Source: a virus
Lineage: Duplodnaviria > Heunggongvirae > Uroviricota > Caudoviricetes
Virus record (IMG/VR): IMGVR_UViG_2534681697_000017
Coordinates: 1 to 19,108 of that record
Length of the DNA stretch: 19,108 nt
Reading direction: 5' to 3' (one strand)
The notes beneath the pieces were generated by a model. That model had not been told where the DNA came from. It did not search any database and saw only the letters and a program-made list of their open reading frames with translations. This document shows, in pieces, positions 1-18,244 of the stretch. Both the position numbers and the translations under genes were made by a program. Numbering within the stretch: the stretch's first letter is position 1; every line of letters begins with the position of its first letter.

Positions 1-277
1 TGATAAAGCGTATTCAGGGCGCGCATTGCGCAACGAGCTGAAAAATAACGGTATAAAGGCAGTAATCCCCCGAAAGTCAAATGAGAAAATGGCATCGGAT
101 GGACGTGCACAGCTTGATCGTGATGCGTACCGCAATCGTAATGTCGTTGAACGGTGCTTTGGGCGGCTGAAAGAATATCGCCGCATCGCCACGCGTTACG
201 ACAAAACGGCGAGAAATTACCTGGCGATGGTGAAACTGGGCTGCATCCGACTCTTTTATCAACGCTTACGTAATTAA
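1..277 (+). CDS. DDE transposase, C-terminal portion (IS4/IS5 superfamily, IS427-like tail); 5' end lies outside the window
   Basis: The frame is open from base 2 to the stop at 275-277. The tail VVERCFGRLKEYRRIATRYDKTARNYLAMVKLGCIRL matches the conserved C-terminal block of IS5-family (IS427-group) transposases as I recall it. The exact IS is not recognised. Confidence 0.6.
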   Translation, partial: DKAYSGRALRNELKNNGIKAVIPRKSNEKMASDGRAQLDRDAYRNRNVVERCFGRLKEYRRIATRYDKTARNYLAMVKLGCIRLFYQRLRN

Positions 278-288
278 GGGACACAGCC
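1..288 (+). mobile_element. Partial IS element (right end), identity unresolved, abutting truncated IS600
   Basis: Transposase stop at 277; IS600 homology begins at 289, so the element terminus lies within about 278-288 (GGGACACAGCC). The boundary is inferred only from the loss of IS600 identity. Confidence 0.45.
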
Positions 289-793
289 TAATCTCCAGTT
301 TTAGCCGCTCATCACTTTGTTTTCTGTCTGAGGGTTCATGCTGTACCCAGTTGTAATAACCGCTCCTGGATACACCAAATACCTGACACATCGCTTCAAT
401 GGGAAATTGTTGTCGCCATTGTTCGATTAACGCGTATTTTTCAGCGACTCCTGTGCAAAATACGCTGTTGCTTTTTTTAATATATCTCGCTCAAGGCGAG
501 CTTCATTTAACGCCTTACGCAGTTGCAGAATTTCAGATTCCAGTTCAGCCACCGTGCGGGAACCAGGAGTACCGAGCCCTTTTCTGGCGGCGGTAACCCA
601 TTGTCCTAAAGTGCCTTCAGGAAGGGATAATCGGGAAGCGCCTTCACTGATCGAAAGTTGATTTTCAAGAACCGTTCTGACAGCTTCGGCTTTGAACTCT
701 TTAGAGTAACGTTGGGTTTTTCTGCTCATTATTAGCTCCTTCTGATGCCATTCTATTTCAGGAAGGAGTGTCCGTTAAACTCAGGCTACCTCA
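289..793 (-). mobile_element. IS600 (IS3 family), truncated copy: left inverted repeat, orfA and the first ~45 codons of orfB
   Basis: The reverse complement of 289-793 matches 2416-2920 of the complete IS600 copy at every position I compared by eye (terminal TGAGGTAGCCTGAGTTTAACGG through CTGGAGATTA); identity stops at 288/289. Confidence 0.85.
427..729 (-). CDS. IS600 OrfA (IS3-family transposase HTH subunit)
   Basis: 100-aa ORF identical in protein sequence to the orfA at 2480-2782; recognised as IS600 OrfA from memory. Confidence 0.85.
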   Translation of the reverse strand: MSRKTQRYSKEFKAEAVRTVLENQLSISEGASRLSLPEGTLGQWVTAARKGLGTPGSRTVAELESEILQLRKALNEARLERDILKKATAYFAQESLKNTR

Positions 794-952
794 CTGCGCA
801 ATTGGCATTGTGCGAATTATTCATTCAGTAAAAAAGATTGAGCGTTTTTTCACTGAAGAATAACAGCACAAATAAAACACACGATTAAATAAGAAAACAT
901 GAAAACAATCCGCACTCGCGGAGGTATCCATATATATAAACACGAGGTTAGC

Positions 953-1216
953 ATGCTCAGGACAAATCAAAAAATACTGAAGGATGCATATTTTGACAGG
1001 GGGCGAGATCTCGCAAAGCTTTGCGCCGCACTAAAAGAAATCAGTCAGTATTTCACTGATATTGAAGATGATATAGCTAACAAAGGTGCCAGTATTACAT
1101 TAGCGAACAGAGCACATTTTATGGGCTTTAATGTTTTCACAGCCATAAGAACATTAAAAGAACAAAAAGAAGAAATAGAAAAGCTCAAATACAGACATAA
1201 AGCCAAGAGGGTGTAA
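953..1216 (+). CDS. Hypothetical protein, first gene of a coupled six-gene cassette
   Basis: ORF open from 899; preferred start is ATG 953, preceded by GAGG (944-947) at 5-nt spacing. The stop overlaps the next start (TAATG at 1214-1218). No recognisable family. Confidence 0.4.
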   Translation: MLRTNQKILKDAYFDRGRDLAKLCAALKEISQYFTDIEDDIANKGASITLANRAHFMGFNVFTAIRTLKEQKEEIEKLKYRHKAKRV

Positions 1217-1419
1217 TGGCAATTAAGCATTTTCCTGTCGTTCGTTTCACCTCCAGAGACCGCGAATATGAGGTCGACGAACGACTGATTACCACTATCG
1301 ACAAACATCGTTCGGAAAAGGATGCACACCACATCTACCTCACTGACGGCACTTACTTCTGCGCCACCAACGTGGCGCGGGTGAATCTTATCCGACAGGT
1401 ACAGGAGCCACGTAGATGA
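1216..1419 (+). CDS. Hypothetical protein (67 aa)
   Basis: ATG 1216 preceded by AGAGGG; stop overlaps the next start (ATGA at 1416-1419), indicating translational coupling. Confidence 0.45.
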   Translation: MAIKHFPVVRFTSRDREYEVDERLITTIDKHRSEKDAHHIYLTDGTYFCATNVARVNLIRQVQEPRR

Positions 1420-1682
1420 CCATTCTGGACTACATCGCTACTCATCCGGGTTGTAGCGGCGGAGAGATCGCCGCAGCACTGAATACCCCAACCACAGCCA
1501 TTAATGCTGAGTTACGCCAACTTTGGCGCGGCGGCTTGGTCATCAGAACAAACCGCAGCACAGGTGGTCGCGCTCGCAAAACAGGAGGCCAGGCTTCTTA
1601 CCACGTAAACCCGATGCCATTCGGGTGTGGCAATCCACTTACTCACATGTTTAACCAGCTGCTGAAGGAAGCCAGAGCATGA
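1416..1682 (+). CDS. Hypothetical protein, possible winged-helix DNA-binding protein (88 aa)
   Basis: ATG 1416 with AGGAG upstream. The N-terminal LDYIATHPGCSGGEIAAALN...LRQLWRGGLVIR pattern resembles a winged-helix fold; that assignment is an inference. Confidence 0.45.
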   Translation: MTILDYIATHPGCSGGEIAAALNTPTTAINAELRQLWRGGLVIRTNRSTGGRARKTGGQASYHVNPMPFGCGNPLTHMFNQLLKEARA

Positions 1683-1978
1683 GCGCCATCAACCACCAGA
1701 AGCTACGCGAACTGGCATTTTCCCTGCAACGAATGGCAACGCCTCAAAAATTACTGGCATTTCGCGCAATGCTCTCGTCGTCTGCTGTGCTGGCACTGCT
1801 GGATGACCTGGAGCACGCCAGAACCACGGCTCCTGCCATTCGCCTGACACTCCATCATGAAATCGCTGATTTCTGCGCAACATTGGAGGCGCCAGGCGAA
1901 CCGGAAACGCCGGAAGCAATACAGCAAGAACTGCTGCAACGCATTGACAAGGTTTTCGATTTTTTCCTTAACCAGTAA
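1679..1978 (+). CDS. Hypothetical protein (99 aa)
   Basis: ATG 1679 overlaps the upstream stop (ATGA); GAAGGAAG ribosome-binding site upstream. Confidence 0.45.
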   Translation: MSAINHQKLRELAFSLQRMATPQKLLAFRAMLSSSAVLALLDDLEHARTTAPAIRLTLHHEIADFCATLEAPGEPETPEAIQQELLQRIDKVFDFFLNQ

Positions 1979-1988
1979 GGGCCGCAAC

Positions 1989-2192
1989 ATGAACAACAAG
2001 ACATGGTTTCGCGCATACATGTGGGCGCTGGTATGCGTCCTTGTCTCTCTCATTCTGTATGTAGGGGTACTCCCCCGAATGATTTCATCAGACAGCTCCT
2101 TCCTGGTATTGCTGGGCATTTTCATTGCCATGCTGTACCCGGCAGGCGTTGTTCGCCTTTTCAGTAAGTACATCAAGGAAATCAAACAATGA
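1989..2192 (+). CDS. Small membrane protein, two predicted transmembrane helices (67 aa)
   Basis: ATG 1989 inside the longer listed ORF 1857-2192. Two hydrophobic stretches (WALVCVLVSLILYVGVL and FLVLLGIFIAMLYPAGVV). Stop overlaps the next start (ATGA at 2189-2192). Confidence 0.45.
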   Translation: MNNKTWFRAYMWALVCVLVSLILYVGVLPRMISSDSSFLVLLGIFIAMLYPAGVVRLFSKYIKEIKQ

Positions 2193-2428
2193 AGAAATTC
2201 AAACTCTTTCAGATTCTCCCGCTTTTTGCCGCCATCCTGCTGGTTGGTTGCGATCGCGTTGAGCCAGGTAATGTGGGCATCAAAGTCAACAAGCTGGGCG
2301 ATGACAAAGGCGTTGGCGAAGTGGTTGGCGTTGGCCGCTACTGGACTGGCTGGAATACCGAGGTTTACATCTTCCCGACCTTCAAACAAATGAAGACCTA
2401 CGATGAGCCGTTCAGTGAGGTAGCCTGA
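2189..2428 (+). pseudogene. Lipoprotein with SPFH/band-7-like N-terminus, truncated by IS600 insertion
   Basis: Signal peptide plus lipobox (LLVGC). GNVGIKVNKLGD...YWTGWNTEVYIFPTFKQ resembles the start of SPFH-domain proteins. The last four codons and the stop (2417-2428) are encoded by the IS600 left terminus, so the native 3' end is missing. Confidence 0.5.
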
Positions 2429-2479
2429 GTTTAACGGACACTCCTTCCTGAAATAGAATGGCATCAGAAGGAGCTAATA

Positions 2480-2782
2480 ATGAGCAGAAAAACCCAACGT
2501 TACTCTAAAGAGTTCAAAGCCGAAGCTGTCAGAACGGTTCTTGAAAATCAACTTTCGATCAGTGAAGGCGCTTCCCGATTATCCCTTCCTGAAGGCACTT
2601 TAGGACAATGGGTTACCGCCGCCAGAAAAGGGCTCGGTACTCCTGGTTCCCGCACGGTGGCTGAACTGGAATCTGAAATTCTGCAACTGCGTAAGGCGTT
2701 AAATGAAGCTCGCCTTGAGCGAGATATATTAAAAAAAGCAACAGCGTATTTTGCACAGGAGTCGCTGAAAAATACGCGTTAA
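2480..2782 (+). CDS. IS600 OrfA
   Basis: 100-aa ORF with GGAG upstream; sequence recognised as IS600 OrfA (MSRKTQRYSKEFKAEAVR...). Confidence 0.9.
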   Translation: MSRKTQRYSKEFKAEAVRTVLENQLSISEGASRLSLPEGTLGQWVTAARKGLGTPGSRTVAELESEILQLRKALNEARLERDILKKATAYFAQESLKNTR

Positions 2783-2817
2783 TCGAACAATGGCGACAAC
2801 AATTTCCCATTGAAGCG

Positions 2818-3636
2818 ATGTGTCAGGTATTTGGTGTATCCAGGAGCGGTTATTACAACTGGGTACAGCATGAACCCTCAGACAGAAAACAAAGTGATGA
2901 GCGGCTAAAACTGGAGATTAAGGTGGCACATATCCGCACTCGCGAAACATATGGAACCCGGCGGCTCCAGACGGAGCTGGCAGAGAATGGCATCATCGTT
3001 GGTCGTGACCGACTGGCACGTCTTCGTAAGGAGCTAAGGCTACGCTGTAAGCAGAAACGCAAGTTCAGAGCGACTACGAACCCGAACCACAATCTGCCAG
3101 TTGCGCCAAATCTGCTGAACCAGACGTTCGCTCCTACAGCACCAAATCAGGTCTGGGTGGCGGACCTGACGTATGTTGCCACACAGGAGGGATGGTTGTA
3201 CCTCGCTGGCATCAAAGATGTTTATACGTGCGAAATTGTCGGCTACGCCATGGGAGAGCGCATGACAAAAGAGCTGACAGGTAAAGCCCTGTTTATGGCG
3301 CTCAGGAGCCAGCGCCCACCTGCCGGGCTAATCCACCACTCTGATCGAGGTTCACAGTACTGCGCATACGATTACCGGGTCATACAGGAGCAGTTTGGTC
3401 TGAAAACATCAATGTCGCGTAAAGGTAACTGTTACGACAACGCTCCGATGGAAAGCTTCTGGGGAACGCTGAAAAATGAGAGCCTGAGCCACTATCGTTT
3501 TAATAACCGGGATGAAGCCATCTCAGTAATACGGGAATACATTGAGATTTTCTACAATCGTCAGCGTCGTCACTCTCGTCTGGGGAATATCTCCCCGGCA
3601 GCCTTCAGGGAAAAATATCATCAGATGGCTGCTTAA
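2818..3636 (+). CDS. IS600 OrfB (DDE integrase-type transposase); normally made as an OrfAB fusion by -1 frameshifting
   Basis: 272-aa ORF with an rve-type DDE core (HSDRGSQY...CYDNAPMESFWGTLK). Coordinates are from the first in-frame ATG; the frame is open upstream into the orfA overlap. Confidence 0.9.
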   Translation: MCQVFGVSRSGYYNWVQHEPSDRKQSDERLKLEIKVAHIRTRETYGTRRLQTELAENGIIVGRDRLARLRKELRLRCKQKRKFRATTNPNHNLPVAPNLLNQTFAPTAPNQVWVADLTYVATQEGWLYLAGIKDVYTCEIVGYAMGERMTKELTGKALFMALRSQRPPAGLIHHSDRGSQYCAYDYRVIQEQFGLKTSMSRKGNCYDNAPMESFWGTLKNESLSHYRFNNRDEAISVIREYIEIFYNRQRRHSRLGNISPAAFREKYHQMAA

Positions 3637-3660
3637 AAAAAGAACAAATGGTAGTGTCCG

Positions 3661-3879
3661 CTATTGCCAGTACACCTCAAAATCACGGGTATGTAGAATT
3701 TTCGATGGTTCACCTGAATAAACCTCATCCAGAGCTCTAACGTATTCGAGAGTTTCAGCGTTGGACAACCAGTGATCCAGACGCTTCCCGAAACGTTTTG
3801 CAATATCAGTGGCATTAATCCAGCCATCAGTATTGAAGCGGATAGGTTCGCCTTTGTAATTCAGTGGAACGATATTCAT
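3661..3879 (-). pseudogene. KilA-N-like phage protein (possible antirepressor N-terminal domain), 3'-truncated by IS600
   Basis: The N-terminus MNIVPLNYKGEPIRFNTDGWINATDIAKRFGK resembles KilA-N domains. The ORF runs into the IS600 right end (native sequence only 3680-3879). Confidence 0.45.
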
Positions 3880-4026
3880 AGCGTCTTACCTTTTAGAAAG
3901 ATGAGCCTGTTCGCACAGAAAAGCCGTCCCCGAGATGGTCGCCACCATATACGGCAGTTCTCAGGCTCAGCTTTCTGAAAAACTCGGGATTGTTACGCGC
4001 TGCGATGCGCGGTTTACTGCGGACAT

Positions 4027-4052
4027 ATAAAAGCCCCGCAAGTGCGAGGCTC
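4027..4052 (-). terminator. Putative intrinsic terminator downstream of Rz
   Basis: Minus-strand RNA AGCCUCGC-ACUU-GCGGGGCU forms an 8-bp stem (one G-U pair) followed by UUUUAUA, about 30 nt after the Rz stop. Confidence 0.4.
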
Positions 4053-4083
4053 ATTAAATGGACTTTGTGATTTGCAAAAAAAT

Positions 4084-4551
4084 TTATTTCAGGCACTGAG
4101 TCCTGATGTACTCCTGAAGCATTCTCAATGCTGTCTGGTCGCTGATGATTCCGTCCCGGATACCGAGAACGTTTCGTCCAGCAACTGGAGAGAGTTCGAC
4201 GGTGGCATCATTGCCCATGCCGGAGGCGCTGGAGGTTTCGGCTGAGGATGGCACAGGGCATTTTCCTTTGACGAGCACCCGACCACCATTATCAAGCTTG
4301 CGCCGAAGAGCATCATTTTCAGCTTTCGCATCAGCTAACTCCTTCGTGTATTTAGCATCGAGTGCATCAGCAGCACGCTGGCGCTGCTGCATGTCAGTAA
4401 TGGTTGCGTTCGCCAGCTTCAGTTCTCTTGCGTTTTTGTCGCGCTGCTCTTTGTAGGTAATGGCGTTATCACGGTAATGATTAACAGCCCATGACAGGCG
4501 GACGATGATGCAGATAACCAGAGCGGAGATAATCGCGGTGACTCTGCTCAT
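4084..4551 (-). CDS. Rz: Rz, inner-membrane spanin (i-spanin)
   Basis: N-terminal transmembrane segment then a charged coiled-coil region; sits immediately after the endolysin with the start overlapping its stop; contains an embedded lipoprotein ORF in the +1 frame. Start taken as ATG 4551 (the listed ORF begins at GTG 4563). Confidence 0.8.
4125..4331 (-). CDS. Rz1: Rz1, outer-membrane lipoprotein spanin (o-spanin), embedded in Rz
   Basis: [19 protein letters not shown] lipoprotein signal followed by a proline-rich segment ([11 protein letters not shown]), entirely inside Rz in another frame: the classic Rz/Rz1 arrangement. Confidence 0.7.
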
Positions 4552-5021
4552 TGCTGCCCCCACAAACAGACTTCACGCTCAATCTCACGACGGGTCATCA
4601 GCCCTTTCCATTGCTTACCGCCAGCATATGTCCAGCGACGTAGCTGGTCACATGCGCCTTTGATATCGCCCTGGTTTATTTTGCGAAGAAGCGTCGATGT
4701 TCTGAAATTGCCAGCGCCCACGTTGTAAACGAACGAGTAAAGAGCGCCGCGCGTTGTTTCCGGTATATCGACTTTGATGTACGGGTTAATTTGTCTGGCG
4801 ACAGTGGCAAGGTCTTTATTCAGGAGAGCTTTGCATTCTGCTTCGGTATACGTTTTACCAGGCATGATGTCTTTTCCGGTGTGTCCGTGACATACAGTCC
4901 ATACACCAATGATATCTTTGTATGGTATGTAGCTGACACCTTCCAGACCATCGTTACCACCTGGGCCAGTGATTAACACAGATGCTATAGCAAACAGCCC
5001 CGCCACCAATAGCAACTGCAA
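4548..5021 (-). CDS. R: Phage lysozyme (P21 R-like SAR endolysin); N-terminus disrupted by a frameshift, listed ORF starts at a TTG
   Basis: [15 protein letters not shown]...[15 protein letters not shown] matches P21-type endolysin as recalled. The expected ATG (5046-5044, overlapping the S stop as TAATG) opens a different frame that stops after 30 codons ([30 protein letters not shown]). See findings. Confidence 0.7.
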
Positions 5022-5045
5022 CAGCCTTGCGTAATGATGGCGACA

Positions 5046-5261
5046 TTATTCACCTCTCGCAGCCTTACGCTTATCTTCTCTTATTTTGAAATACAGATTC
5101 GTCAGATAAGTCAGAAGCCCCAGAAGCAGACTTCCCAGCACACCAATCGCAGCCCACTGTGATGGACTGACCTGATCCAACCACTGCAAAAACCAGTAGC
5201 CGGCACTGCCGGCGGAGGTGCCGTAGGCAATGCCCGTTGAAATTTTATCCATGGATTTCAT
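5046..5261 (-). CDS. S: Class II holin, P21 S-like pinholin with dual-start motif
   Basis: [71 protein letters not shown] is near-identical to S21 as I recall it; Met1-Lys-Ser-Met4 dual start; strong GGAGGTGAGG ribosome-binding site upstream. Confidence 0.85.
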
Positions 5262-5550
5262 AGCCTCACCTCCGCAAATAACGGATGGCGTAGTTCTTAT
5301 ATTGGGAAGGGAAAAAGAAGGCCGCAGCGTAACTGTCACTGATGAATTCAGGATAGCCAGTGGCTACGGCTCAGTTTTGGTTGTGCTGTTGCTGGGCGGC
5401 GATGACGCCTGTACGCATTTGGTGATCCGGTTCTGCTTCCGGCATTCGCTTAATTCAGCACAACGGAAAGAGCATTTATGACTCGCATCGCGGGAAAAAG
5501 CCCACGGTAGAGAGTCGAACTCTACAAATGCTCTTACCTGTTGTGAAAAC

Positions 5551-5580
5551 AAAAAAGCCCCGACGTTTCTGCCGAGGCTC
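5551..5580 (-). terminator. Intrinsic terminator upstream of the lysis cassette (tR'-like position)
   Basis: Minus-strand AGCCUCGGC-AGAAAC-GUCGGGGCU forms a 9-bp stem (two G-U pairs) followed by UUUUUU. Confidence 0.5.
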
Positions 5581-5812
5581 TTACCTAATCTAGCCAGTAT
5601 GTCGACCCTAAATATTATCGACGACCGGGGAAATCAGGATTTCAATTTCACTGCTCAGTTCGCTTTTGCTCCGAGCATATGCAAAAAATACCACTTTCAT
5701 TTCTCGGAAGCAACGCATTTACAAAATTATTTCAGTTCAGGCCGCTATTAATGGAAATTCTTTATCCAATTCTCGTTTCATTGCATAAAACATTTCTGAC
5801 TCCAGCACTTTC

Positions 5813-6263
5813 TCACACCACTCGCTTACGACAATACTGAATATCAGCACCTGTTATATAAGAAATAATCCTGGCTATATCTTGCGTGCAATTGCGATTG
5901 CAATATCGCTTAATAGCTACATCGCGGACAGGGCTTTCACGGTGAAACGTCTTAACCATGTCCGGCATCCCACTGAGCAGACGTGAGCGTTCCGCACGAG
6001 ATACATGGTAAATAGCGATCACGCTCCCTGATATAAGCATTTACTGCCTGCTGTGCCTGCTTCAGCCAGTAACTGCGGGGTTTTAAATCGCGGCGTCTTG
6101 CTTTCAGCTTGTCTGCCTGTTCTTTTGCTGAGGCTATAGCCTTTTCTTTTCTGACCAGTTCCAGTGCACACTGACCACAACAAACTTTCTGATATGAGCG
6201 GAACGGCACAAACTGATTGCCACACACTTTGCAGTTTTTGGGTTTACGCTGTTTCATTATCAC
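5813..6263 (-). pseudogene. ninG: ninG (rap)-like recombination protein gene, disrupted
   Basis: The first 103 codons (5952-6263) match lambda NinG as recalled ([43 protein letters not shown]) and then hit a stop; the downstream sequence continues only in another frame. Confidence 0.6.
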
Positions 6264-6264
6264 C

Positions 6265-6714
6265 TCAGAAAAACGACAGCAGGCGGTTATTCAGTTCAGG
6301 ATTGTTTGTACGCCCAAACACGTGTTTCAGCGCGGCATTAATCATTGCGTTGTAGCAACGTTCAAACTCATCCTGATCCATATTCGCGTAACTCAGGCTT
6401 TTTGCCCGATATCTCACCTCACCTCTTATGGTTGTGACCACATCATAGAACCCGGCAAGAATTGTCAGATTTTTACGAAACTCATCAAACTGCGTCGCTT
6501 CATCAGAGAATTCGTATCCGGCGTGTTCAGCACACCAGTACTGAAAGCAAAAATTAAGAAAAGCGAACATCTTCCGGTGAAAAGATGGATTACGGGTAAG
6601 ATTTGCTTCCAGCGTGTACAGCTCACCGTTTTTAAATTTTGCCAGTCGGGGTAAATCGCGTTCATACGCCGGTATAAATACGCCATTAGCAGCCTTGATC
6701 ATCTCCAGCTCCAT
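6265..6714 (-). CDS. Conserved phage protein of unknown function (149 aa)
   Basis: Intact ORF whose ATG overlaps the upstream stop (ATGA at 6711-6714); lies between the primase gene and ninG. Family assignment not secure; it does not resemble Q. Confidence 0.6.
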
Positions 6715-7673
6715 CAGGCAGCCTCCGCTTTGAATTTGCGCGTCAACACATGTTCACGGGCCTCACACCCCTGAATGAGCATGTCGTTAAAATCCGGCAA
6801 GTCAGGCCAGCGAATACTGACCTTCTCCACGTCATTACGACTCATGAGATTCTTATGCCCACATTTAAAGGCAGCCGCCAGACCTGCACCATGCTCGTCA
6901 TTGTCAGCAAAGATAATCAGGTGATTAACGCCAGGTGGAGCAATAAACTTCTCCATAAAGCCAGAATTCATTGTTGACCATACGTTGCAGCGAAATATCT
7001 GGCGACATGACAGCGCCGTCTCAATCCCCTCTGCAATTCCCAGAGTTGATGACACCGGATACAGGCGTATCGCTACAGATTTGGCATATTCCAGATAAGA
7101 TTGCTCCTGTAATGCCAGCGCTTTTTTGGCAGCCTCCACACCCGCTTTGCGATCGCCATCCAGCAAGGTACGGTGCAGGTAACACAGCATGCCTTTATCA
7201 TCTGTTACGATTGAATAAATCGCCTGGTACTCCCGTCCATTAGCAATCTGCCGATTACAAAAACGAACGGATTCTGCCGGTAACTGGAGGATCCCCCTGT
7301 TTTTCAGATATGCCTCTCCTGAAGTTCCGCGCAAACATGGCAATCTGGCAAATTTAGCTGTAACCCTCTCCCGGTTTCTGGTTGTGTCAGTCACAACAGG
7401 TCTTGCGTGCTCTTTTTTCCAAGTATTACCAATCAGTCGATCGATTTCATCGCACAGAGTCACCCAAGGCTTACCCGTTGCCAGTTGCAACAACTGCATC
7501 CCATCGCCATGACCACAGACACATATCCACGATCCTGTTCCGCAACGGAATTTACCTTTAGCGCCGCAAATGGGGCAGGTGCCCTTGTAATGTTTACCGC
7601 CAGTGACAGGAGGCATACCGTAGTATTCAAAAATCCGCTCCCAGTGCCCCTTTGCTGCCTCCTTAGTTTGCAT
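6714..7673 (-). CDS. Zinc-ribbon plus Toprim domain protein (phage DNA primase-like)
   Basis: N-terminal Cys cluster (CPICGAKGKFRC...WICVCGHGD) and a Toprim-like acidic motif (LIIFADNDEHGAG); GGAGG ribosome-binding site; coupled to the helicase gene upstream. Confidence 0.75.
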   Translation of the reverse strand: MQTKEAAKGHWERIFEYYGMPPVTGGKHYKGTCPICGAKGKFRCGTGSWICVCGHGDGMQLLQLATGKPWVTLCDEIDRLIGNTWKKEHARPVVTDTTRNRERVTAKFARLPCLRGTSGEAYLKNRGILQLPAESVRFCNRQIANGREYQAIYSIVTDDKGMLCYLHRTLLDGDRKAGVEAAKKALALQEQSYLEYAKSVAIRLYPVSSTLGIAEGIETALSCRQIFRCNVWSTMNSGFMEKFIAPPGVNHLIIFADNDEHGAGLAAAFKCGHKNLMSRNDVEKVSIRWPDLPDFNDMLIQGCEAREHVLTRKFKAEAA

Positions 7674-9183
7674 GCTGGCCTCCGGTCATGGCTTTCTTGC
7701 GCCCTTTGGCATAGGCAATGATCTTTGACTTGATGAAATTGTGCACTTCAACCGAGGTTTGCAGCGGCGCGTTACTGAAGCCTTTAGGCCACACCCCGAA
7801 CTTCTCTTTGTAGGTATGAGCGCACCATCCGTCACTCAGTGGCTTACCTGTCGCGTTGCGGTAATTCTGATAGCCCTTGATCTCACTCCACCACCGCTGT
7901 TTTTCCTCGCGGCTGTATTCGCGTTTCCCTTTGTTTACGCGAGAGAGTTTTCGATCGCGGTCTGTTGCCACATCATCGCCACCAAGAGGACGAAACCCAC
8001 ATTTGGGACACATGTGTACACCAGCAGGCTTCATGAAGTGGCATTTGGGGCATTCTCTGGGAAGTTTTTCAGCTTTAACCTCGCCACCGCCAGCAGACGC
8101 TTTCATTCCGTCATTTTTGCCCGGCAGTTCGTCATACTCGATATCCTCGGGGAAACCCAGCCGATGAACCGTGCCAGAATGGTCGAAAATCAACGCACGT
8201 TGTTTACCTGGGGCTGTACGTAACGCTCTACCTATGCACTGCAACCAACGGATTTCTGATTTTGTCGGACGGGCATAGATCAGGCAGCGAACATCGCTGT
8301 CAAATCCCGCAACCAGTACGCCGACGTTGACAATTATTTTGGTCACGCCCTCTTCAAAACGGCGAATGATGTCCTGTCGTTCATCATGGAGGGTATCTGC
8401 CATCATCACCTCTGCGCCAATACCGGCCTGTAAAAACTCACGGGTAACAAAATTCGCATGCGCAACATTCACACAGAAGCAGATCGTCGGCAAATCCTCA
8501 CCATTCTCAAGCCAGTTGCGAACGATATCGCCAACCAGATCCGAACTCCCCATGATGGATGCGAGCTGCTCCTCGTTGTAATCCCGTCCAAATACGGTGT
8601 TACTGGTTTTTACGCCAGCCAGATCAGGCATTGAGGGGGCAAAAAACTCATAATCGCTCAGATCACCACGCTGAATAAGTTCACGAATCGTTGTAGGCTT
8701 GATCAGGCATTCGTAGTACTTCCCCATCCAGGCTGCGAACGGGGTACCGGAAAGTCCAAGAACCCTGATGTCTCTGTCCCGGATAACCTCAAGTAACGCA
8801 CGACGCTTCATGTGTGCTTCATCGATGATCAGCAGATCGATGTTGTCAGGAAACTCACGACGGATCAGCGTGTCGGCACTGGCAATCTGAATCAGTCGTG
8901 ACGGGTCATAGTTAGGGTGATCACGCCATACAAAACTGATTTCTTCCCACGGCAAACCGTATTCGGTGAAACGTTCCGCTGTCTGGTTCAGCAGGATGGT
9001 GTACGGACAGACAAACATCACTCGCATACCACGTTCAACCATTCCGGCGGTGACGAATGCTGCAAGACCAGTTTTGCCAGAGCCAGTGGGTGCATACATC
9101 AGGTACGTGCGATGCTGTTTCCACTGGTGCCGCAGCTGGTTTAAACCGCGCTCCTGAGCAAAGTTTGGGATTATTTTCAGCAT
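7663..9183 (-). CDS. Superfamily-2 DEAD/DEAH-box helicase with C-terminal zinc ribbon (phage replicative helicase)
   Basis: Walker A (APTGSGKT), DEAH box (LLIIDEAHM), C-terminal CPKCHFMKP...CPKCGF. 506 aa. Confidence 0.8.
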   Translation of the reverse strand: MLKIIPNFAQERGLNQLRHQWKQHRTYLMYAPTGSGKTGLAAFVTAGMVERGMRVMFVCPYTILLNQTAERFTEYGLPWEEISFVWRDHPNYDPSRLIQIASADTLIRREFPDNIDLLIIDEAHMKRRALLEVIRDRDIRVLGLSGTPFAAWMGKYYECLIKPTTIRELIQRGDLSDYEFFAPSMPDLAGVKTSNTVFGRDYNEEQLASIMGSSDLVGDIVRNWLENGEDLPTICFCVNVAHANFVTREFLQAGIGAEVMMADTLHDERQDIIRRFEEGVTKIIVNVGVLVAGFDSDVRCLIYARPTKSEIRWLQCIGRALRTAPGKQRALIFDHSGTVHRLGFPEDIEYDELPGKNDGMKASAGGGEVKAEKLPRECPKCHFMKPAGVHMCPKCGFRPLGGDDVATDRDRKLSRVNKGKREYSREEKQRWWSEIKGYQNYRNATGKPLSDGWCAHTYKEKFGVWPKGFSNAPLQTSVEVHNFIKSKIIAYAKGRKKAMTGGQHAN

Positions 9184-9563
9184 GACGCCCCCTTGCTACG
9201 TGATTTACCCGTTGCCGGGATCACGTCGATCTCATCGCTAACGTATTGATCCGGATTACGTGAACAGCGCAGAAGCACGATACCAGGAATGCCGTATAGC
9301 TTGAGTCTGCGCAGTTTCAGTATTGAACGTGCCCGTGGTGACGCTCTGTCCACCTCGATCGCGCACCGTTCACCAGATGGGGCAACGACCATGATATCGA
9401 CGAATCCGCGCTTACCGTTGCCCATATCAACCAGATAATTACGTTCGATCGCCAGTCCGGCATCACGCAATTTGGCAGCCAGCACATAATCAAACGTGAC
9501 CTTGTCTTTTCCGGTGTAGAATTTGTTTCCGAGCAGGCTGATAACCACATGTTTGATGAACAT
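9177..9563 (-). CDS. Hypothetical protein, possibly nuclease-fold (VRR-NUC/PD-(D/E)xK-like), coupled to the helicase
   Basis: 128-aa ORF whose stop overlaps the helicase start. The GFVDIMVV...AIEVD segment loosely resembles a PD-(D/E)xK core; weak inference. Confidence 0.45.
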   Translation of the reverse strand: MFIKHVVISLLGNKFYTGKDKVTFDYVLAAKLRDAGLAIERNYLVDMGNGKRGFVDIMVVAPSGERCAIEVDRASPRARSILKLRRLKLYGIPGIVLLRCSRNPDQYVSDEIDVIPATGKSRSKGASC

Positions 9564-9785
9564 GGTACTATTTCCACCGCAATAGTTGGCATAATAATAA
9601 TTTCGCCAGAAACCATCTCACCCTATACAGTGATCTACCTAACCTATGGAGCTGCCTTCCTCTGGTAGTGCCCTTACAGGCACGGATGTTACAGATCTGC
9701 CCCCTTACCCCCTTCTTAGTAAAATTTCAAGCGCAATGATTTCATGAGAAATCATTTCACAAAAAAATAATCACCTTGATGAGAT

Positions 9786-10067
9786 CTATTCCTTCCGTAT
9801 CGCTACTGGCGAAAGCATCCAGCCACGGCTGGCTCTCGCGTACTTCTGGACATACACCCGTAACCGGGTGTTGGCACTCCGTCTTGCCCTGTTGCCCTTC
9901 CTGAACGATACAGGCTCCTTGTCCCACTCTTCCTGGTACACTCTCGCGTACTCTGCTGCAATTTTTACCCTGGTGGTCGGGTCTAGCTGTAACAATTGCT
10001 CCTGTATCCAGTCCCGATCAGCATCACAGTACTGATCGGGCATAACCGTTTTGATTTGCCTGTTCAC
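9786..10067 (-). CDS. Hypothetical protein (93 aa), first gene after cro-like
   Basis: GTG start at 10067 preceded by GGAGGTG at 5-nt spacing; an alternative ATG lies at 10043. No recognisable domain. Confidence 0.5.
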   Translation of the reverse strand: MNRQIKTVMPDQYCDADRDWIQEQLLQLDPTTRVKIAAEYARVYQEEWDKEPVSFRKGNRARRSANTRLRVYVQKYARASRGWMLSPVAIRKE

Positions 10068-10089
10068 TCACACCTCCGATGGAGGGTTA

Positions 10090-10329
10090 TCAGGCTGTTT
10101 GCCTTACATGAAGCGGAATACCATCTTCCATGTTTAGGTAGTCATGCGGGTTTAGTTCATGGGGAGTTACATTCCAGTCTGTAGCTTTTGCCCATTCAAT
10201 GGCTTTCCGCCCCTGAGGCATGTATCTCCCTGTAATAACCCCACTGACAAATCCCTGAGAAACTCCAACAATCGCCGCAAAATCGGCTTGTCTGATAGAG
10301 CTTTGTCTCAAGTACTCGTCAAGAGTCAT
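10090..10329 (-). CDS. Cro-like HTH regulator (Cro/YdaS-type)
   Basis: Transcribed divergently from cI; helix-turn-helix SIRQADFAAIVGVSQGFVSGVITGR; GGGAGG ribosome-binding site 7 nt upstream of the ATG. Confidence 0.65.
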   Translation of the reverse strand: MTLDEYLRQSSIRQADFAAIVGVSQGFVSGVITGRYMPQGRKAIEWAKATDWNVTPHELNPHDYLNMEDGIPLHVRQTA

Positions 10330-10434
10330 AGAGATCCTCCCATTTCAATTTTCCGATATTAGCTTACCTGATTTAAATGTCAATAGGCTAGCTATTTGAT
10401 AAATATTTGTGTTGCTAATAAAATTGGAGGCACT
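10330..10434. promoter_or_regulatory. cI/cro divergent intergenic control region (oR-like, pR/pRM-like)
   Basis: 105-bp AT-rich spacer between divergent repressor genes; contains an imperfect dyad TAGCTTACC...GGCTAGCTA. Operators are not individually resolved. Confidence 0.5.
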
Positions 10435-11154
10435 ATGACGAAGAAAATTACAATTACTGACAAAGACATCCAGAACGCTGAACGACTGCGCAAAATCTGG
10501 GATGAAAAACGGAAACAGCTATCCCTAAGCCAGGAAAAAGCCGCAGATATCCTCGGCTTCAAAACGCAGGGGGCTGTTAGTCAGTTATTGAACGCAAAAA
10601 TTGCGTTAAATACTGAAAATACCCTTAAGTTTGCGGCTTTATTACAGGTTCCTGCGGAAGAAATTAATCCAGATCTGAGTGATTTGTTACGCAGTATTCG
10701 TACCCACACACCGGGAAACAGGCGTAACCTGTTCGAGAAATATTACGAATATCCGTTACTCTCCTGCGTACAGGCTGGAGCTTTCTCAATGGATGATTTT
10801 TCGTACACCGCAAAGGATGCGATTAAGTGGATCTCCACCACCACAAAAGCCAGTGACAGGTCGTTCTGGCTGGAGGTCAAGGGGCATTCAATGACCGCGC
10901 CGCAGGGTGGTAAACCCAGTTTCCCCGAAGGGATGCTGATACTCGTTGACCCTGAGCGGGAGATTGAGGATGGCGATTTTTGCGTGGCCCGAATGAATGG
11001 CGATGAATTCACCTTCAAACGATTCATTCGTGAGAGCGGTAAAGCGTACCTGGAGCCACTCAACCCACGATTCGACATGATTGAGTGTAACGAAAACTGC
11101 CAGTTTGTCGGAAAGGTCATAAAGTCGCAGTGGAATGATGAGACTTTTGATTGA
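10435..11154 (+). CDS. cI: Lambda-family CI repressor (HTH plus S24 LexA-like autopeptidase domain)
   Basis: C-terminal half ([32 protein letters not shown]...[11 protein letters not shown]...[14 protein letters not shown]) closely resembles the lambda CI C-terminal domain as recalled, including an Ala-Gly site (VQAGAF). N-terminal HTH is divergent. Start at ATG 10435 with GGAGG upstream. Confidence 0.9.
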
Positions 11155-11275
11155 ACTCACAGGATGATATCAATAACCTTGCAGGGAGGCTATTTTATTT
11201 CCTTTTTCAGCGAAAAATCTCCGAGAACCCTCGCCCAATGCGGGCGGGGAGCAGTCGCAATCAAGTGAGCCATAA

Positions 11276-11446
11276 ATGAACAAAGACAAATCCTTGACAC
11301 AACAAGTGGAAGAAATACTTAGCAAGCAAAAAGTTAGCGAGCAAGGAAAAATGATTCAATCATTAAAGAACATGGGCTTGATCAACAAGCCTGTTTTTAC
11401 TTTGGCTTATGGACCAGATATTACAACCTGCCAAATGCACCAATAA
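11276..11446 (+). CDS. Small ORF (56 aa) downstream of cI, unknown function
   Basis: ATG 11276 to TAA 11444-11446, immediately followed by a strong terminator; weak ribosome-binding site; below the size cutoff of the supplied ORF track. Confidence 0.3.
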   Translation: MNKDKSLTQQVEEILSKQKVSEQGKMIQSLKNMGLINKPVFTLAYGPDITTCQMHQ

Positions 11447-11478
11447 CAAAACCCGGCCTTGGTGCCGGGTTTTGTTTG
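11447..11478. terminator. Bidirectional intrinsic terminator between the cI and hicAB transcription units
   Basis: AAAACCCGGC-CTTGGT-GCCGGGTTTT perfect 10-bp stem, flanked by T-runs on both strands. Confidence 0.7.
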
Positions 11479-11560
11479 CCTCCTGCTCACCCCACCATTT
11501 ACCAGTGCGCCGTAAATTCCCCATTCTTCGGCGGTGAGGATGTCAAAGACGAAGGGAACA

Positions 11561-11905
11561 TTAAGCCCCTGTGTGATGGTTGACTTCTTTTTCCAGCGCC
11601 TTATTAACAAAGGCGTTCAGTGATAAATCTTCTTCCATCGCCATTTCAGCGACCCGACGATGCAGTTCTGGATCAAGTCTGACGTTAAACACACCTTTAA
11701 ACGGGGTATCAGGCTCCTTTCCATCCTCCACACAAGACTGTAAATACAGCTCAACCGATGTCTTAAACTCCTGTTCCAGTTCAGCTAATGTAGAAGCCTC
11801 ATAAGTTACCAGGTCTCGAATAAACGCCAGTTTTCCGTACAGGATATTATTTTCAAAATCTGGTTCTACTGTACCTAAATATCCTTTATATTTTAGATGA
11901 TTCAT
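11561..11905 (-). CDS. hicB: HicB-family antitoxin (HicB fold plus C-terminal ribbon-helix-helix)
   Basis: ATG overlaps the hicA stop (ATGA at 11902-11905); C-terminal ELHRRVAEMAMEEDLSLNAFVNKALEKEV is RHH-like. Confidence 0.7.
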   Translation of the reverse strand: MNHLKYKGYLGTVEPDFENNILYGKLAFIRDLVTYEASTLAELEQEFKTSVELYLQSCVEDGKEPDTPFKGVFNVRLDPELHRRVAEMAMEEDLSLNAFVNKALEKEVNHHTGA

Positions 11906-12156
11906 AATACCCCAGCCTCTTTCAGATTCTGTTTAATCGCTTTCAGCGTTCCACCTTTAATATAACTTTCTGGATGTGGGCGATGCATTAATATGGTGTG
12001 GTTGATTTCAGCATTGAAAAACCGCACTCTTGAGCCCTGCATTTCCTTTTTGACATATCCCAGAGAGGAAAACAAAACGACCAACTCATCCCATTCAAAC
12101 GTTTTTTTACTGTTTAAAAACTTTTCCAGTAGCTTATCTGCTTTCCCCATACCCAC
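11902..12156 (-). CDS. hicA: HicA-family toxin (mRNA interferase)
   Basis: GSRVRF...HRPHP...IKGGTLKAIKQNLKEAG matches the HicA consensus. The listed start is GTG 12156; an alternative ATG lies at 12150. Confidence 0.7.
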   Translation of the reverse strand: MGMGKADKLLEKFLNSKKTFEWDELVVLFSSLGYVKKEMQGSRVRFFNAEINHTILMHRPHPESYIKGGTLKAIKQNLKEAGVL

Positions 12157-12305
12157 ATAATCTCATCTTCGCTACATTGCAACTAATTATAGTTACAGGC
12201 GATGTTTTTGTCAAAAGCCACCAAGCCCGCTGGGTTCTCTTTGACTGTTCACTGCTTTTCTTAGTGTTATCAGGGGGTTCCCTCACACCAAATCTAACAC
12301 AGAGT

Positions 12306-12332
12306 AACCGGCCTCAGCGCCGGTTTTTCTTT
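12306..12332 (+). terminator. Plus-strand intrinsic terminator upstream of the putative early-left promoter
   Basis: AACCGGC-CTCAGC-GCCGGTT stem followed by TTTTTCTTT; no U-run on the opposite strand. Confidence 0.55.
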
Positions 12333-12443
12333 GCGCATCCTCCATAACTCACCACCTGCATTATCCTCGCTTATATTTTTTACATAAATAAATTAATCTA
12401 AAAATCAATCACATAGATTAAAATTAAATTATCAGTCTTACTA

Positions 12444-12473
12444 TTAACTGCGATCAGTTGCGCTTATTATATT
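12444..12473 (+). promoter_or_regulatory. Candidate early-left (pL-like) promoter
   Basis: TTAACT, an 18-nt spacer, then TATATT, within a very AT-rich block; read by eye only. Confidence 0.3.
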
Positions 12474-12495
12474 TTACCCAAGCCAGAAACATCGC

Positions 12496-12565
12496 GCCCT
12501 GACACAGGGCTACATAAATCAGTCGTACGGCGCGACTTAACCCGCCGCAAAATGCTCTTTAACAA
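12496..12565 (+). promoter_or_regulatory. Antitermination-like element: boxB-like hairpin (12496-12510) plus rrn-type boxA (12553-12565)
   Basis: GCCCTGACACAGGGC has the same stem as lambda nut boxB (GCCCU...AGGGC) with a different loop; TGCTCTTTAACAA equals the E. coli rrn boxA consensus as recalled. Confidence 0.4.
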
Positions 12566-12854
12566 TCTGGAGCTTTACAGCGTCAATGACCTGTTTAGAC
12601 CCCTACACGTAAACGTGCTGTATCATCGGGTGCGATCCGGTCGATGAGAGAGTATCCCCGCGCGAGAGCGAGAACGGCGTGAGAACGGGCAACACTGGCA
12701 GGAAGTTGGCGCTGACCAATACAGGGAATGTTTTGGGGTGCAGGCGGCACCGCCAAAGCATTTCCGAGAAAGGACGATATTGACTGCGTGTGATGTCGGG
12801 GCTATATTTGGCGAACACCTCATAAAACGGGTGCCGGGATTAGCACCCCGAAAG

Positions 12855-12893
12855 TTACTCGAGCGCATAACCGCGCTGAAGCGGTTTTTTTAT
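12855..12893 (+). terminator. Putative intrinsic terminator in the leader just upstream of the Rha-like gene
   Basis: CGCATAA-CCGCGCTGAAGCGG-TTTTTTTATGCG: inner hairpin (ACCGC/GCGGT) plus T7 run, enclosed by an outer CGCATAA/TTATGCG stem. Confidence 0.4.
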
Positions 12894-13057
12894 GCGTAAT
12901 GCACAGCCACATTCAAATTATGGTGAGGCGTGCGGGGCAGCCGCAAGGCTGGCCGGGTTCTCGAGTGACCGGTAGTGCTAACCCTGTGCGTCTCACCACC
13001 CATGAGATTAGCACCTCTGGTGGTGAGTTAATTAACTTATCACTTGAGGATGTCATT

Positions 13058-13435
13058 ATGGCTACTACCCTTTCTCACCCTGACGTAACCATCGAAAATG
13101 GTCGCGCCGTCACTACTTCTATTTCGATTGCTGAGTTTTTTGGCAAGCAGCATCACCATGTTGTTCAGAAAATAGAATCCCTCGAATGCTCTGAGCAATT
13201 CTTAACCCGCAACTTTTCGCGGGTTAAATTCGAACACCGAGGCAATACCTATAACGCCTACCAAATCACCAAAAACGGCTTCGTTTTTCTGGTGATGGGC
13301 TTCACCGGCAAAAAAGCAGCTGCATTCAAGGAAGCCTACATTGCTGAATTCGATCGCATGGAAAAACAACTATGGGAACAGAAACAACTGGCCCTGTCTT
13401 CTCCTGCGATGAATATCAATTTCCCTTTATCGTAG
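13058..13435 (+). CDS. Rha-family phage regulatory protein (125 aa)
   Basis: VTTSISIAEFFGKQHHHVVQKIESL resembles the Phage_pRha motif. Start at ATG 13058 with GAGGA 7 nt upstream; the longer ORF from 12899 is rejected. Confidence 0.6.
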   Translation: MATTLSHPDVTIENGRAVTTSISIAEFFGKQHHHVVQKIESLECSEQFLTRNFSRVKFEHRGNTYNAYQITKNGFVFLVMGFTGKKAAAFKEAYIAEFDRMEKQLWEQKQLALSSPAMNINFPLS

Positions 13436-13462
13436 TTTTCAGAGCATCACCCCTATGCCACG

Positions 13463-13696
13463 ATGAACTATGTTGATAGAAATACATTGCAGCTTGATAC
13501 CTCCGTCTTATTCGACATGCCAAGCCCTGCAATGCGCATATTTAATGAATTACGTCGTAACGGCTATAACGTCGATGCGGCTGTCGCCGAATTTAACGCC
13601 TTCAAGCATCTGACGGAAGAAATGCGCCGTAAATTGCTGGATATTTCCCGCACATCGGAAAAGTCTTCCCGCTTTGGTTTCAACGTTAATCTTTAA
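13463..13696 (+). CDS. Hypothetical protein (77 aa)
   Basis: ORF in the early-left operon; weak ribosome-binding site. Confidence 0.45.
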   Translation: MNYVDRNTLQLDTSVLFDMPSPAMRIFNELRRNGYNVDAAVAEFNAFKHLTEEMRRKLLDISRTSEKSSRFGFNVNL

Positions 13697-13766
13697 TTAA
13701 CCCCATCCCCGATCACATATCGGGGATTAAATTAAATATCTGGATTAATTAACCGGAGGATTTGTC

Positions 13767-13979
13767 ATGCTCAAACCTCACTACGGAACCGCATTAGTTT
13801 CTCGCGAGGACGTTAAACCCGGTACAGCAATTCTTTACAACGGGCGTTATTACATGGCGTCAGCTAACGTTAATAATGCACTTTACGCACATTCACTGAT
13901 TGAAAAAATCCGCATTATTTCAGATGCAATCGAAGTTTACCTGAACCATAAAGGCCAACCGTTAATCTCACCAGCCTGA
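13767..13979 (+). CDS. Hypothetical protein (70 aa)
   Basis: ATG preceded by CCGGAGGA. Confidence 0.55.
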   Translation: MLKPHYGTALVSREDVKPGTAILYNGRYYMASANVNNALYAHSLIEKIRIISDAIEVYLNHKGQPLISPA

Positions 13980-13990
13980 AAGGAAATATC

Positions 13991-14272: not shown

Positions 14273-14292
14273 CCGGAATCAGGAGTTCCGCC

Positions 14293-14574: not shown

Positions 14575-14591
14575 TTTTCAGGACCAAAAAA

Positions 14592-17357: not shown

Positions 17358-18240
<883 letters not shown>

Positions 18241-18244
<4 letters not shown>

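Follow-up and report, generated by a model that had tools for sequence, protein, structure and literature searches.

We analyzed a two-gene locus in a 19,108-nucleotide stretch of DNA (hereafter, the window) that spans positions 1 to 19,108 of the IMG/VR virus record IMGVR_UViG_2534681697_000017 (Caudoviricetes). The locus consists of an intact gene of a small two-helix membrane protein and of the beginning of a gene of a lipoprotein from the SPFH/band-7 superfamily, cut off by the insertion sequence (IS) element IS600. The gene pair has been catalogued in phages before, and the locus is a broken but otherwise ordinary example of it. SPFH genes were noted in T4-like phage genomes (PMC1524935), and the Kayvirus SPFH pair MbpV/MbpS was described at the annotation level (PMC7150955). 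According to a 2026 paper on an N4-like phage, the reason for the presence of an SPFH gene “remains unclear” (PMC13239085). A Pasteurella prophage SPFH protein was reported to be a TLR1/2-activating virulence factor (PMC9872710); this protein, PM0222, is the only experimentally studied prophage SPFH protein that we found in the literature.

A hairpin protein gene and the start of an SPFH lipoprotein gene

The locus comprises the following features (all positions are those of the window unless stated otherwise):

1989-2192, + strand: intact gene of the 67-aa partner of the SPFH lipoprotein, a small two-helix protein (predicted) of the inner membrane
2073-2117, + strand: inter-helix loop and start of helix 2, with the only conserved residues of the family, Pro29, Ser33 and Gly43
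2189-2192, + strand: ATGA stop/start overlap, where the TGA of the small gene shares bases with the ATG of the lipoprotein gene
2189-2428, + strand: truncated lipoprotein open reading frame (ORF), a 79-aa stump
2189-2251, + strand: predicted lipoprotein signal peptide, lipobox L-V-G-C with Cys21 at 2249-2251, followed by Asp22
2189-2415, + strand: 5' remainder of the native gene of the SPFH/band-7 lipoprotein, 75 of 276 codons and 2 nt
2416-2428, + strand: IS600-derived tail of the ORF; codon 76 is completed as Ser and followed by E-V-A-stop

The initial annotation of this DNA, made from its letters alone, described the product of the small ORF as a 67-aa double-transmembrane protein. This description agrees with our results. 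The ORF is present, its product (MNNKTWFRAYMWALVCVLVSLILYVGVLPRMISSDSSFLVLLGIFIAMLYPAGVVRLFSKYIKEIKQ in the window translation) has two hydrophobic segments in the hydropathy profile, and AlphaFold2 with a 15-sequence alignment predicts a helical hairpin (helices 3-32 and 37-66) with a predicted local distance difference test (pLDDT) score of 86. Judged by sequence comparison, the small ORF is a real gene, because its homologs are free of stops, the substitutions are of the coding type and PHROG 1130 is matched. All 25 distinct DNA homologs in the fetched loci (25/25) lack stop codons, the differences from the window copy number 54/32/138 at codon positions 1/2/3, and the protein matches PHROG 1130 (“membrane protein”) with an E-value of 8.8e-22.

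PHROG 1130, placed in the PHROG category “moron, auxiliary metabolic gene and host takeover”, is also matched by 8 of 12 aligned partner proteins. In this alignment, which represents 12 phage lineages, Pro29 is invariant and Ser33 and Gly43 are conserved in at least 90% of the sequences; Pro29 and Ser33 are both invariant in an independent set of 15 partners. The profile match, the two-helix size within 55-85 aa, and the Pro and Ser of the loop make the small protein a member of the PHROG 1130 hairpin family. Both its ends are basic and the loop is short and polar, which by the positive-inside rule suggests an N-in/C-in topology with the loop in the periplasm. We also considered whether the small partner is an NfeD protein. 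This was rejected: the protein has 67 aa and two helices only, the OB-fold is absent, and the 12 family members gave no match to the NfeD Pfam family (PF01957) at E-values up to 0.1.

The ATGA overlap reported in the initial annotation is indeed found at 2189-2192, implying probable translational coupling of the small gene and the lipoprotein gene. The starts overlap or abut in N4, SE_PL, Gekk3-15, OLIVR5, RcXuper, and Stx2_EH2201 as well. AAGGG lies 8 nt 5' of the ATG of the small ORF, and a Shine-Dalgarno-like AAGG precedes either start by approximately 8 nt. The lipoprotein ORF opens with the signal peptide MKKFKLFQILPLFAAILLVGC, followed by the mature part DRVEPGNVGIKVN. The signal peptide has everything that sequence prediction looks for in a lipoprotein: a basic n-region, a hydrophobic core (h-region), and a lipobox, L-V-G-C, of the pattern [LVI][ASTVI][GAS]C, with Asp at position +2. 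Of 13 aligned phage homologs, 12 have a lipobox-like sequence with a Cys, and G20, C21, and D22 are conserved in at least 90% of 24 enterobacterial homologs. In homologs from RcXuper and from Staphylococcus and Enterococcus phages the lipobox is replaced by an N-terminal membrane anchor. Asp at position +2 is the Lol-avoidance, or inner-membrane retention, signal of E. coli.

The 79-aa stump has no Pfam match because just about 55 mature residues are left in it. The SPFH assignment thus rests on full-length homologs and not on the stump in the window. Intact copies, annotated as “SPFH domain-containing protein”, were found with megablast in 112 complete E. coli genomes. The intact homolog (276 aa) matches Pfam Band_7 (PF01145) over residues 23-209 with 108.4 bits against a cut-off of 23.6 (E-value 5.7e-31), and it matches PHROG 200 (“lipoprotein”) with an E-value of 2e-112. 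The search for intact homologs that the initial annotation had recommended therefore bears out the SPFH/band-7 resemblance that it had seen in the mature N-terminus. Several phage records name the SPFH protein “serine protease” or “putative transposase”, at odds with the Pfam result.

A structure prediction of the full-length protein had likewise been recommended. The AlphaFold2 model of a 92%-identical homolog (P0021; pLDDT 78.5) consists of a signal helix, an alpha/beta domain, and a single long helix, with strands in 21-95, helices in 97-162, a strand at 164-176, and a helix of 65 residues at 179-243. The C-terminal 30 residues are of low confidence in this monomer model, yet they are conserved and include KW[ND]GxLP. 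A Foldseek search of the PDB matched the model over its full length, with probability 1.0, to the cage-forming SPFH proteins prohibitin, HflK/C, erlin, stomatin, and flotillin (E-values 1e-14 to 1e-8) and to QmcA. By sequence profile, the nearest PDB proteins are prohibitin and HflK/HflC (E-value ~1e-6). Orthology with HflK/HflC was nevertheless rejected, since the scores of the intact homolog are far under the cut-offs of the NCBIfam equivalogs: 25.7 versus 134.4 bits for hflC (TIGR01932) and 23.5 versus 159.4 bits for hflK (TIGR01933). By these scores the SPFH lipoprotein resembles HflK/C without being a member of that family.

Pairing and distribution of the intact genes

The initial annotation regarded the combination of a membrane partner with an SPFH protein as a recurrent operon architecture and proposed to examine the co-occurrence of the two genes. 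We did so in both directions. A same-strand ORF of 55-85 aa with two predicted helices was found upstream of the SPFH gene in all 12 sampled proteobacterial phage lineages (12/12); in eight of them it is adjacent to or overlaps the SPFH gene, and in four it lies at a distance of ~150-700 bp. P2-like, lambdoid, N4-like, jumbo, Aeromonas, Pseudomonas, Agrobacterium, Rhodobacter, and Burkholderia phages all have such an ORF. For two of the 12 partner ORFs the public records give either no annotation or a wrong one. The hairpin gene is unannotated in the record of the Stx2a phage Stx2_EH2201 (LC567829, locus 2316-2504), and in Pseudomonas phage HHBS55_2 (PQ287648) it is hidden under an annotated coding sequence of the opposite strand (locus 828-1040).

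With a hidden Markov model (HMM) built from the 12-lineage partner alignment, we detected a same-strand partner in 191 of 214 SPFH loci. The automated count is low in high-GC genomes, where the starts of the longest ORFs are wrong, and for divergent partners, and it was corrected by inspection. Twelve of the 23 misses were inspected: eleven have a divergent two-helix ORF at the same place and phiCbK has a three-helix ORF. In three further misses the SPFH gene is at a contig edge, and two more apparent absences in the cluster count are ORF-start artefacts in high-GC genomes. In Staphylococcus, Enterococcus, and Halorubrum viruses the small neighbor has a single helix instead. As a background, only 18 of 343 other genes in the SPFH loci (5%) have an upstream two-helix ORF of this kind.

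The reverse test started from partner homologs that were fetched by phmmer from 1.84 billion representatives, blind to SPFH. A Band_7 gene lies directly downstream of the partner homolog in seven of eight look-ups, and the eighth is an orphan with an aberrant C-terminus. The partner family appears to outrun a sequence-only census through fast divergence, because phmmer with the single small protein as a query gave 13 proteins only; a word-indexed search with the small protein found close E. coli relatives only. A related-locus search found two loci with the Gekk3-15 SPFH protein and one with the OLIVR5 SPFH protein. Since the forward and the reverse tests agree and the background is 5%, the pairing is, by these counts, a rule of the family, real and ancient. 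The initial annotation had named two observations that would speak against it, namely full-length homologs without an SPFH fold and a pair that does not co-occur outside this locus. Both were examined: the homologs do have the fold, and the pair recurs far outside the window.

Of 50,697 phage records, 768 contain SPFH homologs. E. coli ETEC4090 has the pair in a P2-like prophage, where it follows the divergent repressor/cox switch and precedes gpA, the gene of the replication endonuclease, past which portal and terminase genes are found. A 73%-identical partner elsewhere has the same cox-gpA arrangement, and the SPFH protein of the P2-like Escherichia phage P88 matches the intact E. coli copy with 100% identity. 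In an Stx2 phage the pair lies between the cI-side genes and xis-int, all on one strand. In N4 it corresponds to gp19/gp20 in the middle-gene region, right after the RNAP2 genes; gp20 is 61.5% identical to the intact copy, and gp19 belongs to the hairpin family. The pair is also found in N4-like Erwinia phages and in a Salmonella jumbo phage. The SPFH family extends to Seunavirus, Kolesnikvirus, and phages of Aeromonas, Pseudomonas, Agrobacterium, Rhodobacter, Burkholderia, and Caulobacter and, beyond these, to Staphylococcus and Enterococcus myoviruses and haloarchaeal viruses; it includes Vi01-like and T4-like phages too. A 74%-identical pair stands beside genes of a gp32-like single-stranded DNA-binding protein, a 5'-3' exonuclease, and RecA in contigs of 50 to ~110 kb. 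These contigs may be phage-plasmids; among complete E. coli genomes, plasmids account for 194 of the matching places.

Wherever its position could be read, the pair is among early, middle, or replication genes. By its families (PHROGs 1130 and 200) and gene context, the module belongs to phages and is not a host membrane-stress operon. Thus the recurrence stated in the initial annotation is upheld, but the partner is not NfeD and the pair is not the classical SPFH-NfeD operon.

P2 has a Pe/cox operon. Because of the synteny with it, we expect the P2-like pair to be unexpressed in lysogens and to be produced early once the prophage is induced or a cell is infected. No promoter-like site was found in front of the pair in the P2-like prophage. 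A GC-rich hairpin with a run of seven T (locus 10538-10553) is located 168 bp 3' of the intact SPFH gene and is followed by promoter-like sites. The pair may close a transcription unit in the P2-like early region. In N4-like phages a gene of an AAA/AAA_2 (Clp/FtsH-type) ATPase adjoins the pair (locus coordinates 2437-3192, 3509-4204, and 110-859). This neighbor was considered as a hint of a link with proteases, but it is confined to the N4-like group and was treated as synteny only.

IS600 elements and the other contents of the window

The following features surround the pair:

1-288: 3' end of another DDE transposase gene (DDE_Tnp_1_2, hit ORF 26-274, E-value 1e-9)
289-793, - strand: partial IS600 copy, IS positions 1-505, orfA at 427-729, left inverted repeat (IRL) end toward the phage fragment
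794-2415, + strand: fragment of a P2-like prophage early (cox-to-gpA) operon, 1622 bp
899-1216, + strand: early-operon ORF, 105 aa (phrog_21900, E-value 7e-72)
1216-1419, + strand: early-operon ORF, 67 aa (phrog_3459, E-value 6e-45), with an ATGA overlap with the ORF ahead
1416-1682, + strand: MarR-type winged-helix protein, 88 aa (Pfam MarR_2, E-value 1e-6)
1679-1978, + strand: early-operon ORF, 99 aa (phrog_4144, E-value 4e-61; faint Pfam Ead_Ea22 match, E-value 0.045)
2416-3679, + strand: complete IS600, 1264 bp, orfA at 2480-2782 and orfB region at 2818-3636
3661-3879, - strand: truncated KilA-N ORF of an unrelated lambdoid prophage (Pfam KilA-N, E-value 2e-10), which meets the right end of IS600

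The phage fragment 794-2415 has 95% DNA identity, contiguous over its whole length, to P2-like contigs of IMG/VR, and its identity to E. coli ETEC4090 is mosaic. Intact prophages annotate the 88-aa MarR-type ORF as a MarR family regulator.

That the lipoprotein is cut after 75 codons by IS600, as the initial annotation had it, is exact. In the alignment with the intact E. coli copy the homology extends to 2415 and is broken at 2416 by the IS600 end TGAGGTAGCC. All that 2189-2415 keeps of the SPFH domain is its first beta-strands; tblastn found SPFH residues 1-76 in the window and nothing further of the SPFH gene. Over its 1264 bp the element shows 100% identity to others for which the PGAP annotation is “IS3-like element IS600 family transposase”. 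It is full-length, with orfA, orfB, and terminal inverted repeats, its ends being of the TGAGGTAGCC...GGTGTACTGG type. The partial copy is 100% identical to positions 1-505 of the full copy, so that two inverted IS600 copies, identical over their shared part, border the phage fragment. At IS position 505 the partial copy is cut by the transposase gene at 1-288, i.e., one IS is nested in another.

A simple insertion of IS600 is expected to produce a 3-bp target duplication. The complete IS600 has no target-site duplication: the three bases to its left read CAG, and those to its right read AAA. A simple insertion into the SPFH gene was rejected, given this result and the unrelated truncated gene beyond the element. 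As its two junctions read, IS600 is a recombination joint of two different prophage remnants, because a target duplication is lacking and the gene on the far side is a truncated KilA-N gene. Both IS600 IRL ends are preceded by CAG in the IS orientation (794-796 and 2413-2415), which may be due to chance (1 in 64) or be left over from the history of the rearrangement. The exact junction of SPFH and IS600 was absent from the GTDB species representatives and was not spanned in 5,426 complete E. coli genomes.

No sigma-70-like promoter was found on the + strand of 794-2415, and the cox-side promoter region is lost. The initial annotation considered any function to be lost in this copy, and we concur. 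The window copy is almost certainly a non-functional, lineage-specific outcome of an IS600-mediated rearrangement. We regard it as a dead remnant because neither the coding remainder of SPFH, nor a promoter-like site, nor a target duplication is present. The functional content left in the window is perhaps, at most, an unexpressed hairpin gene.

The other features that were recognized in the window are as follows:

4084-4563, - strand: Rz, in the lambdoid lysis cassette after KilA-N
4548-5021, - strand: lysozyme, in the same cassette
5046-5339, - strand: P21-type holin, in the same cassette
6714-7673, - strand: Toprim primase, lambdoid prophage
7663-9183, - strand: helicase, lambdoid prophage
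10396-11154, + strand: cI-like S24 repressor, lambdoid prophage
12899-13435, + strand: Rha/Ash protein, lambdoid prophage
16227-17174, + strand: Ea22-like protein, lambdoid prophage
17171-18567: start of an IS2-like orfA and an IS3-family element on the - strand, orfA at 18241-18567 and orfB at 17358-18026, from ORF translations

The remainder of the lambdoid prophage occupies 6714-17174. Within 17171-18567 the start of an IS2-like orfA seems to be interrupted by the - strand IS3-family element, to judge from ORF translations only.

Possible function of the intact pair and its known relatives

Quite probably, in our view, a conserved two-gene phage membrane module has left a dead remnant here, and its intact copies would form a periplasm-facing cage at the inner membrane. 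The lipoprotein would be exported, lipidated at Cys21, and held in the inner membrane through Asp at +2. That the protein stays at the cytoplasmic membrane and exposes its SPFH domain on the outer side is proposed because Asp at +2 is conserved and an anchor replaces the lipobox in some distant homologs. The SPFH domain and the long helix would then be on the periplasmic face, in a topology like that of HflK/C and prohibitin; since these are also the closest solved relatives, we propose a periplasm-facing SPFH cage. By analogy with them, the lipoprotein would oligomerize into a ring or cage above a patch of the inner membrane. The hairpin protein, presumably made in roughly equal amounts because of translational coupling, would be the integral-membrane partner in or beneath the cage; its Pro/Ser loop is predicted to lie on the periplasmic side, as the SPFH domain would.

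The module would be made early in lytic growth and would sequester or shield an inner-membrane machine. The strongest single candidate for this machine is the FtsH protease, as for HflK/C and prohibitin. Close behind come two alternatives: that the module excludes the DNA of superinfecting phages, or that it controls membrane integrity or the timing of lysis. That the function is modulation of FtsH or of membrane proteostasis is, on these analogies, no better than a tentative proposal, which we would sooner doubt than accept. We put forward with the same reserve the broader possibility that this is a pan-phage early module, in which an HflK/C- or prohibitin-like cage on the outer side of the cytoplasmic membrane, with a minimal two-helix partner replacing NfeD, captures or shields a host membrane machine such as FtsH or a DNA-entry or secretion component.

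Several points weigh against this interpretation. Oligomerization, the contact of the two proteins, and the FtsH link are derived from homology and topology only, and early expression is deduced from gene position. The similarity with HflK/C is remote (23-26 bits versus NCBIfam cut-offs of 134-159). The +2 rule is a rule of E. coli, and the +2 residue varies: it is Tyr in N4 gp20 and Ser, Ala, Asn, or Gly in other phages. Homologs are present in haloarchaeal viruses, whose hosts, to our knowledge, lack FtsH; these homologs argue for a general membrane role over an FtsH-specific one. Our literature search found no experiment on, or functional study of, the phage hairpin-SPFH pair, the mentions being at the annotation level.

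An early cage with a hairpin partner could instead serve superinfection exclusion by stopping the DNA of a later phage at the inner membrane. Suggested analogs are T4 Imm (a two-helix protein) with Sp, P22 SieA, and HK97 gp15. The early or middle position in lytic phages and in the early operons of temperate ones, the predicted periplasm-facing inner-membrane topology, the PHROG category of the partner, and the accessory-gene-like spread over unrelated phages are all in line with such a device. At the same time, a pair in the repressed P2-like early operon without a promoter-like site of its own would leave the lysogen unprotected, and a general membrane role agrees better with genes that are conserved all the way from Enterobacteria through Rhodobacter and Caulobacter to Gram-positive and archaeal viruses. 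PADLOC-DB 2.0 has no model for the SPFH protein, and the small protein has only a marginal, 20-residue match to the candidate model PDC-M18B (E-value 0.008). We hold exclusion to be rather unlikely. The same PADLOC result bears on the idea of a prophage-borne system of anti-phage defense or abortive infection that benefits the lysogen. The initial annotation tied SPFH to phage-related functions, prophages often bear defense genes, and virulence has been reported as a host-level phenotype of an SPFH/HflK/C-like protein from a P. multocida prophage (PMC9872710). However, the pair resides in the strictly lytic phages N4, Seunavirus, Kolesnikvirus, and jumbo phages, and its place is an early lytic operon and not a moron-type cassette with its own promoter. 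The defense explanation was dropped because PADLOC gave no usable match and the pair occurs in strictly lytic phages; we see very little chance that it is right.

Control of lysis or of membrane integrity is another option, in which an SPFH scaffold would confine membrane proteins of the phage, such as holins, steady the energized membrane until lysis, or aid the secretion of lytic enzymes. It draws on Kayvirus, where mbpV-mbpS lies between the endolysin and transglycosylase genes, MbpV was noted to resemble holins, and MbpS was proposed to aid Sec export of Tgl (PMC7150955). One partner homolog has a weak match to a holin family of Pfam, but its E-value of 0.04 is at the noise level. In P2-like, lambdoid, N4-like, and phage-plasmid-like genomes the pair has early or replication genes as neighbors and is well separated from the lysis cassette. 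We regard this option as distinctly unlikely. As for a classical host SPFH-NfeD operon for housekeeping or membrane stress, the order of a membrane partner and then SPFH, the tight coupling, and the presence of QmcA, the partner of YbbJ, among the fold matches speak for it. It is already contradicted by a partner too small for the NfeD OB-fold and devoid of NfeD Pfam matches, by the location of the genes in prophages and phages and not in the core chromosome, and by the predicted periplasmic topology as opposed to the cytoplasm-facing QmcA; we give it next to no weight. Beside FtsH or proteostasis, exclusion, and lysis, the remaining weight goes to something else.

The window copy itself matters little, being a dead stump in an IS-scrambled patchwork of prophage remnants, and the annotations of E. 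coli prophages and of phage P88 already include identical genes in intact form. The pair, however, is among the more widespread phage accessory modules of putative role and follows a strict gene-order rule. Its predicted topology is that by which HflK/C and prohibitin control FtsH-type proteases, and the FtsH-type hypothesis is cheap to examine in N4 or P88. If the proposed cage module is real, a phage would control membrane proteostasis or membrane access during infection, SPFH cages would be a general takeover tool of viruses of bacteria and archaea, and N4 gp19-gp20 would be a tractable model.

Among known systems, P. multocida PM0222, which we compared by description only, is also a prophage-encoded SPFH-superfamily protein and is HflK/C-like, but it is reported from outer-membrane vesicles and as a TLR1/2 agonist and virulence factor, with a phenotype in the animal host and not in phage biology (PMC9872710). 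The P88 pair, N4 gp19/gp20, and Kayvirus MbpV/MbpS differ from the window copy in being intact. In Kayvirus the SPFH protein MbpS is likewise preceded by a small membrane protein, MbpV; however, MbpV has one transmembrane helix, and MbpS has a membrane anchor and no lipobox of the enterobacterial type. The QmcA-YbbJ and other SPFH-NfeD operons (8Z5G) share the two-gene combination of SPFH and a small membrane partner, with a fold E-value of 3e-8, but the NfeD OB-fold is missing from the phage partner, the genes are ordered differently, the topology is another one, QmcA being cytoplasm-facing, and the context is a phage and not a host one.

Prohibitin directs its SPFH domain toward the compartment equivalent to the extracytoplasmic one, and its complex partners an FtsH-type AAA protease. 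Mitochondrial prohibitin PHB1/PHB2 (8RRH, 9O9Z, 9URZ) is the top Foldseek and the top profile match and has a similar length; on the other hand, it is eukaryotic, hetero-oligomeric, and anchored by a transmembrane helix, and its identity to the phage protein is only 14-18%. E. coli HflK/HflC, the FtsH modulator cage (7VHP, 7WI3, 9CZ2), differs in its anchor, an N-terminal transmembrane helix versus the predicted lipid-modified Cys of the phage protein, in being a K/C heteropair versus one SPFH gene, and in its length of 334-419 residues versus ~255 mature residues. The phage protein is, besides, encoded by a phage and scores far below the NCBIfam hflK/hflC cut-offs, and its FtsH link is drawn purely by analogy. 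What the two have in common is an SPFH domain followed by a long helix, a place of HflK/HflC among the best PDB matches to the phage protein both by sequence and by profile, and an SPFH domain on the periplasmic face of the inner membrane, which for the phage protein is a prediction.

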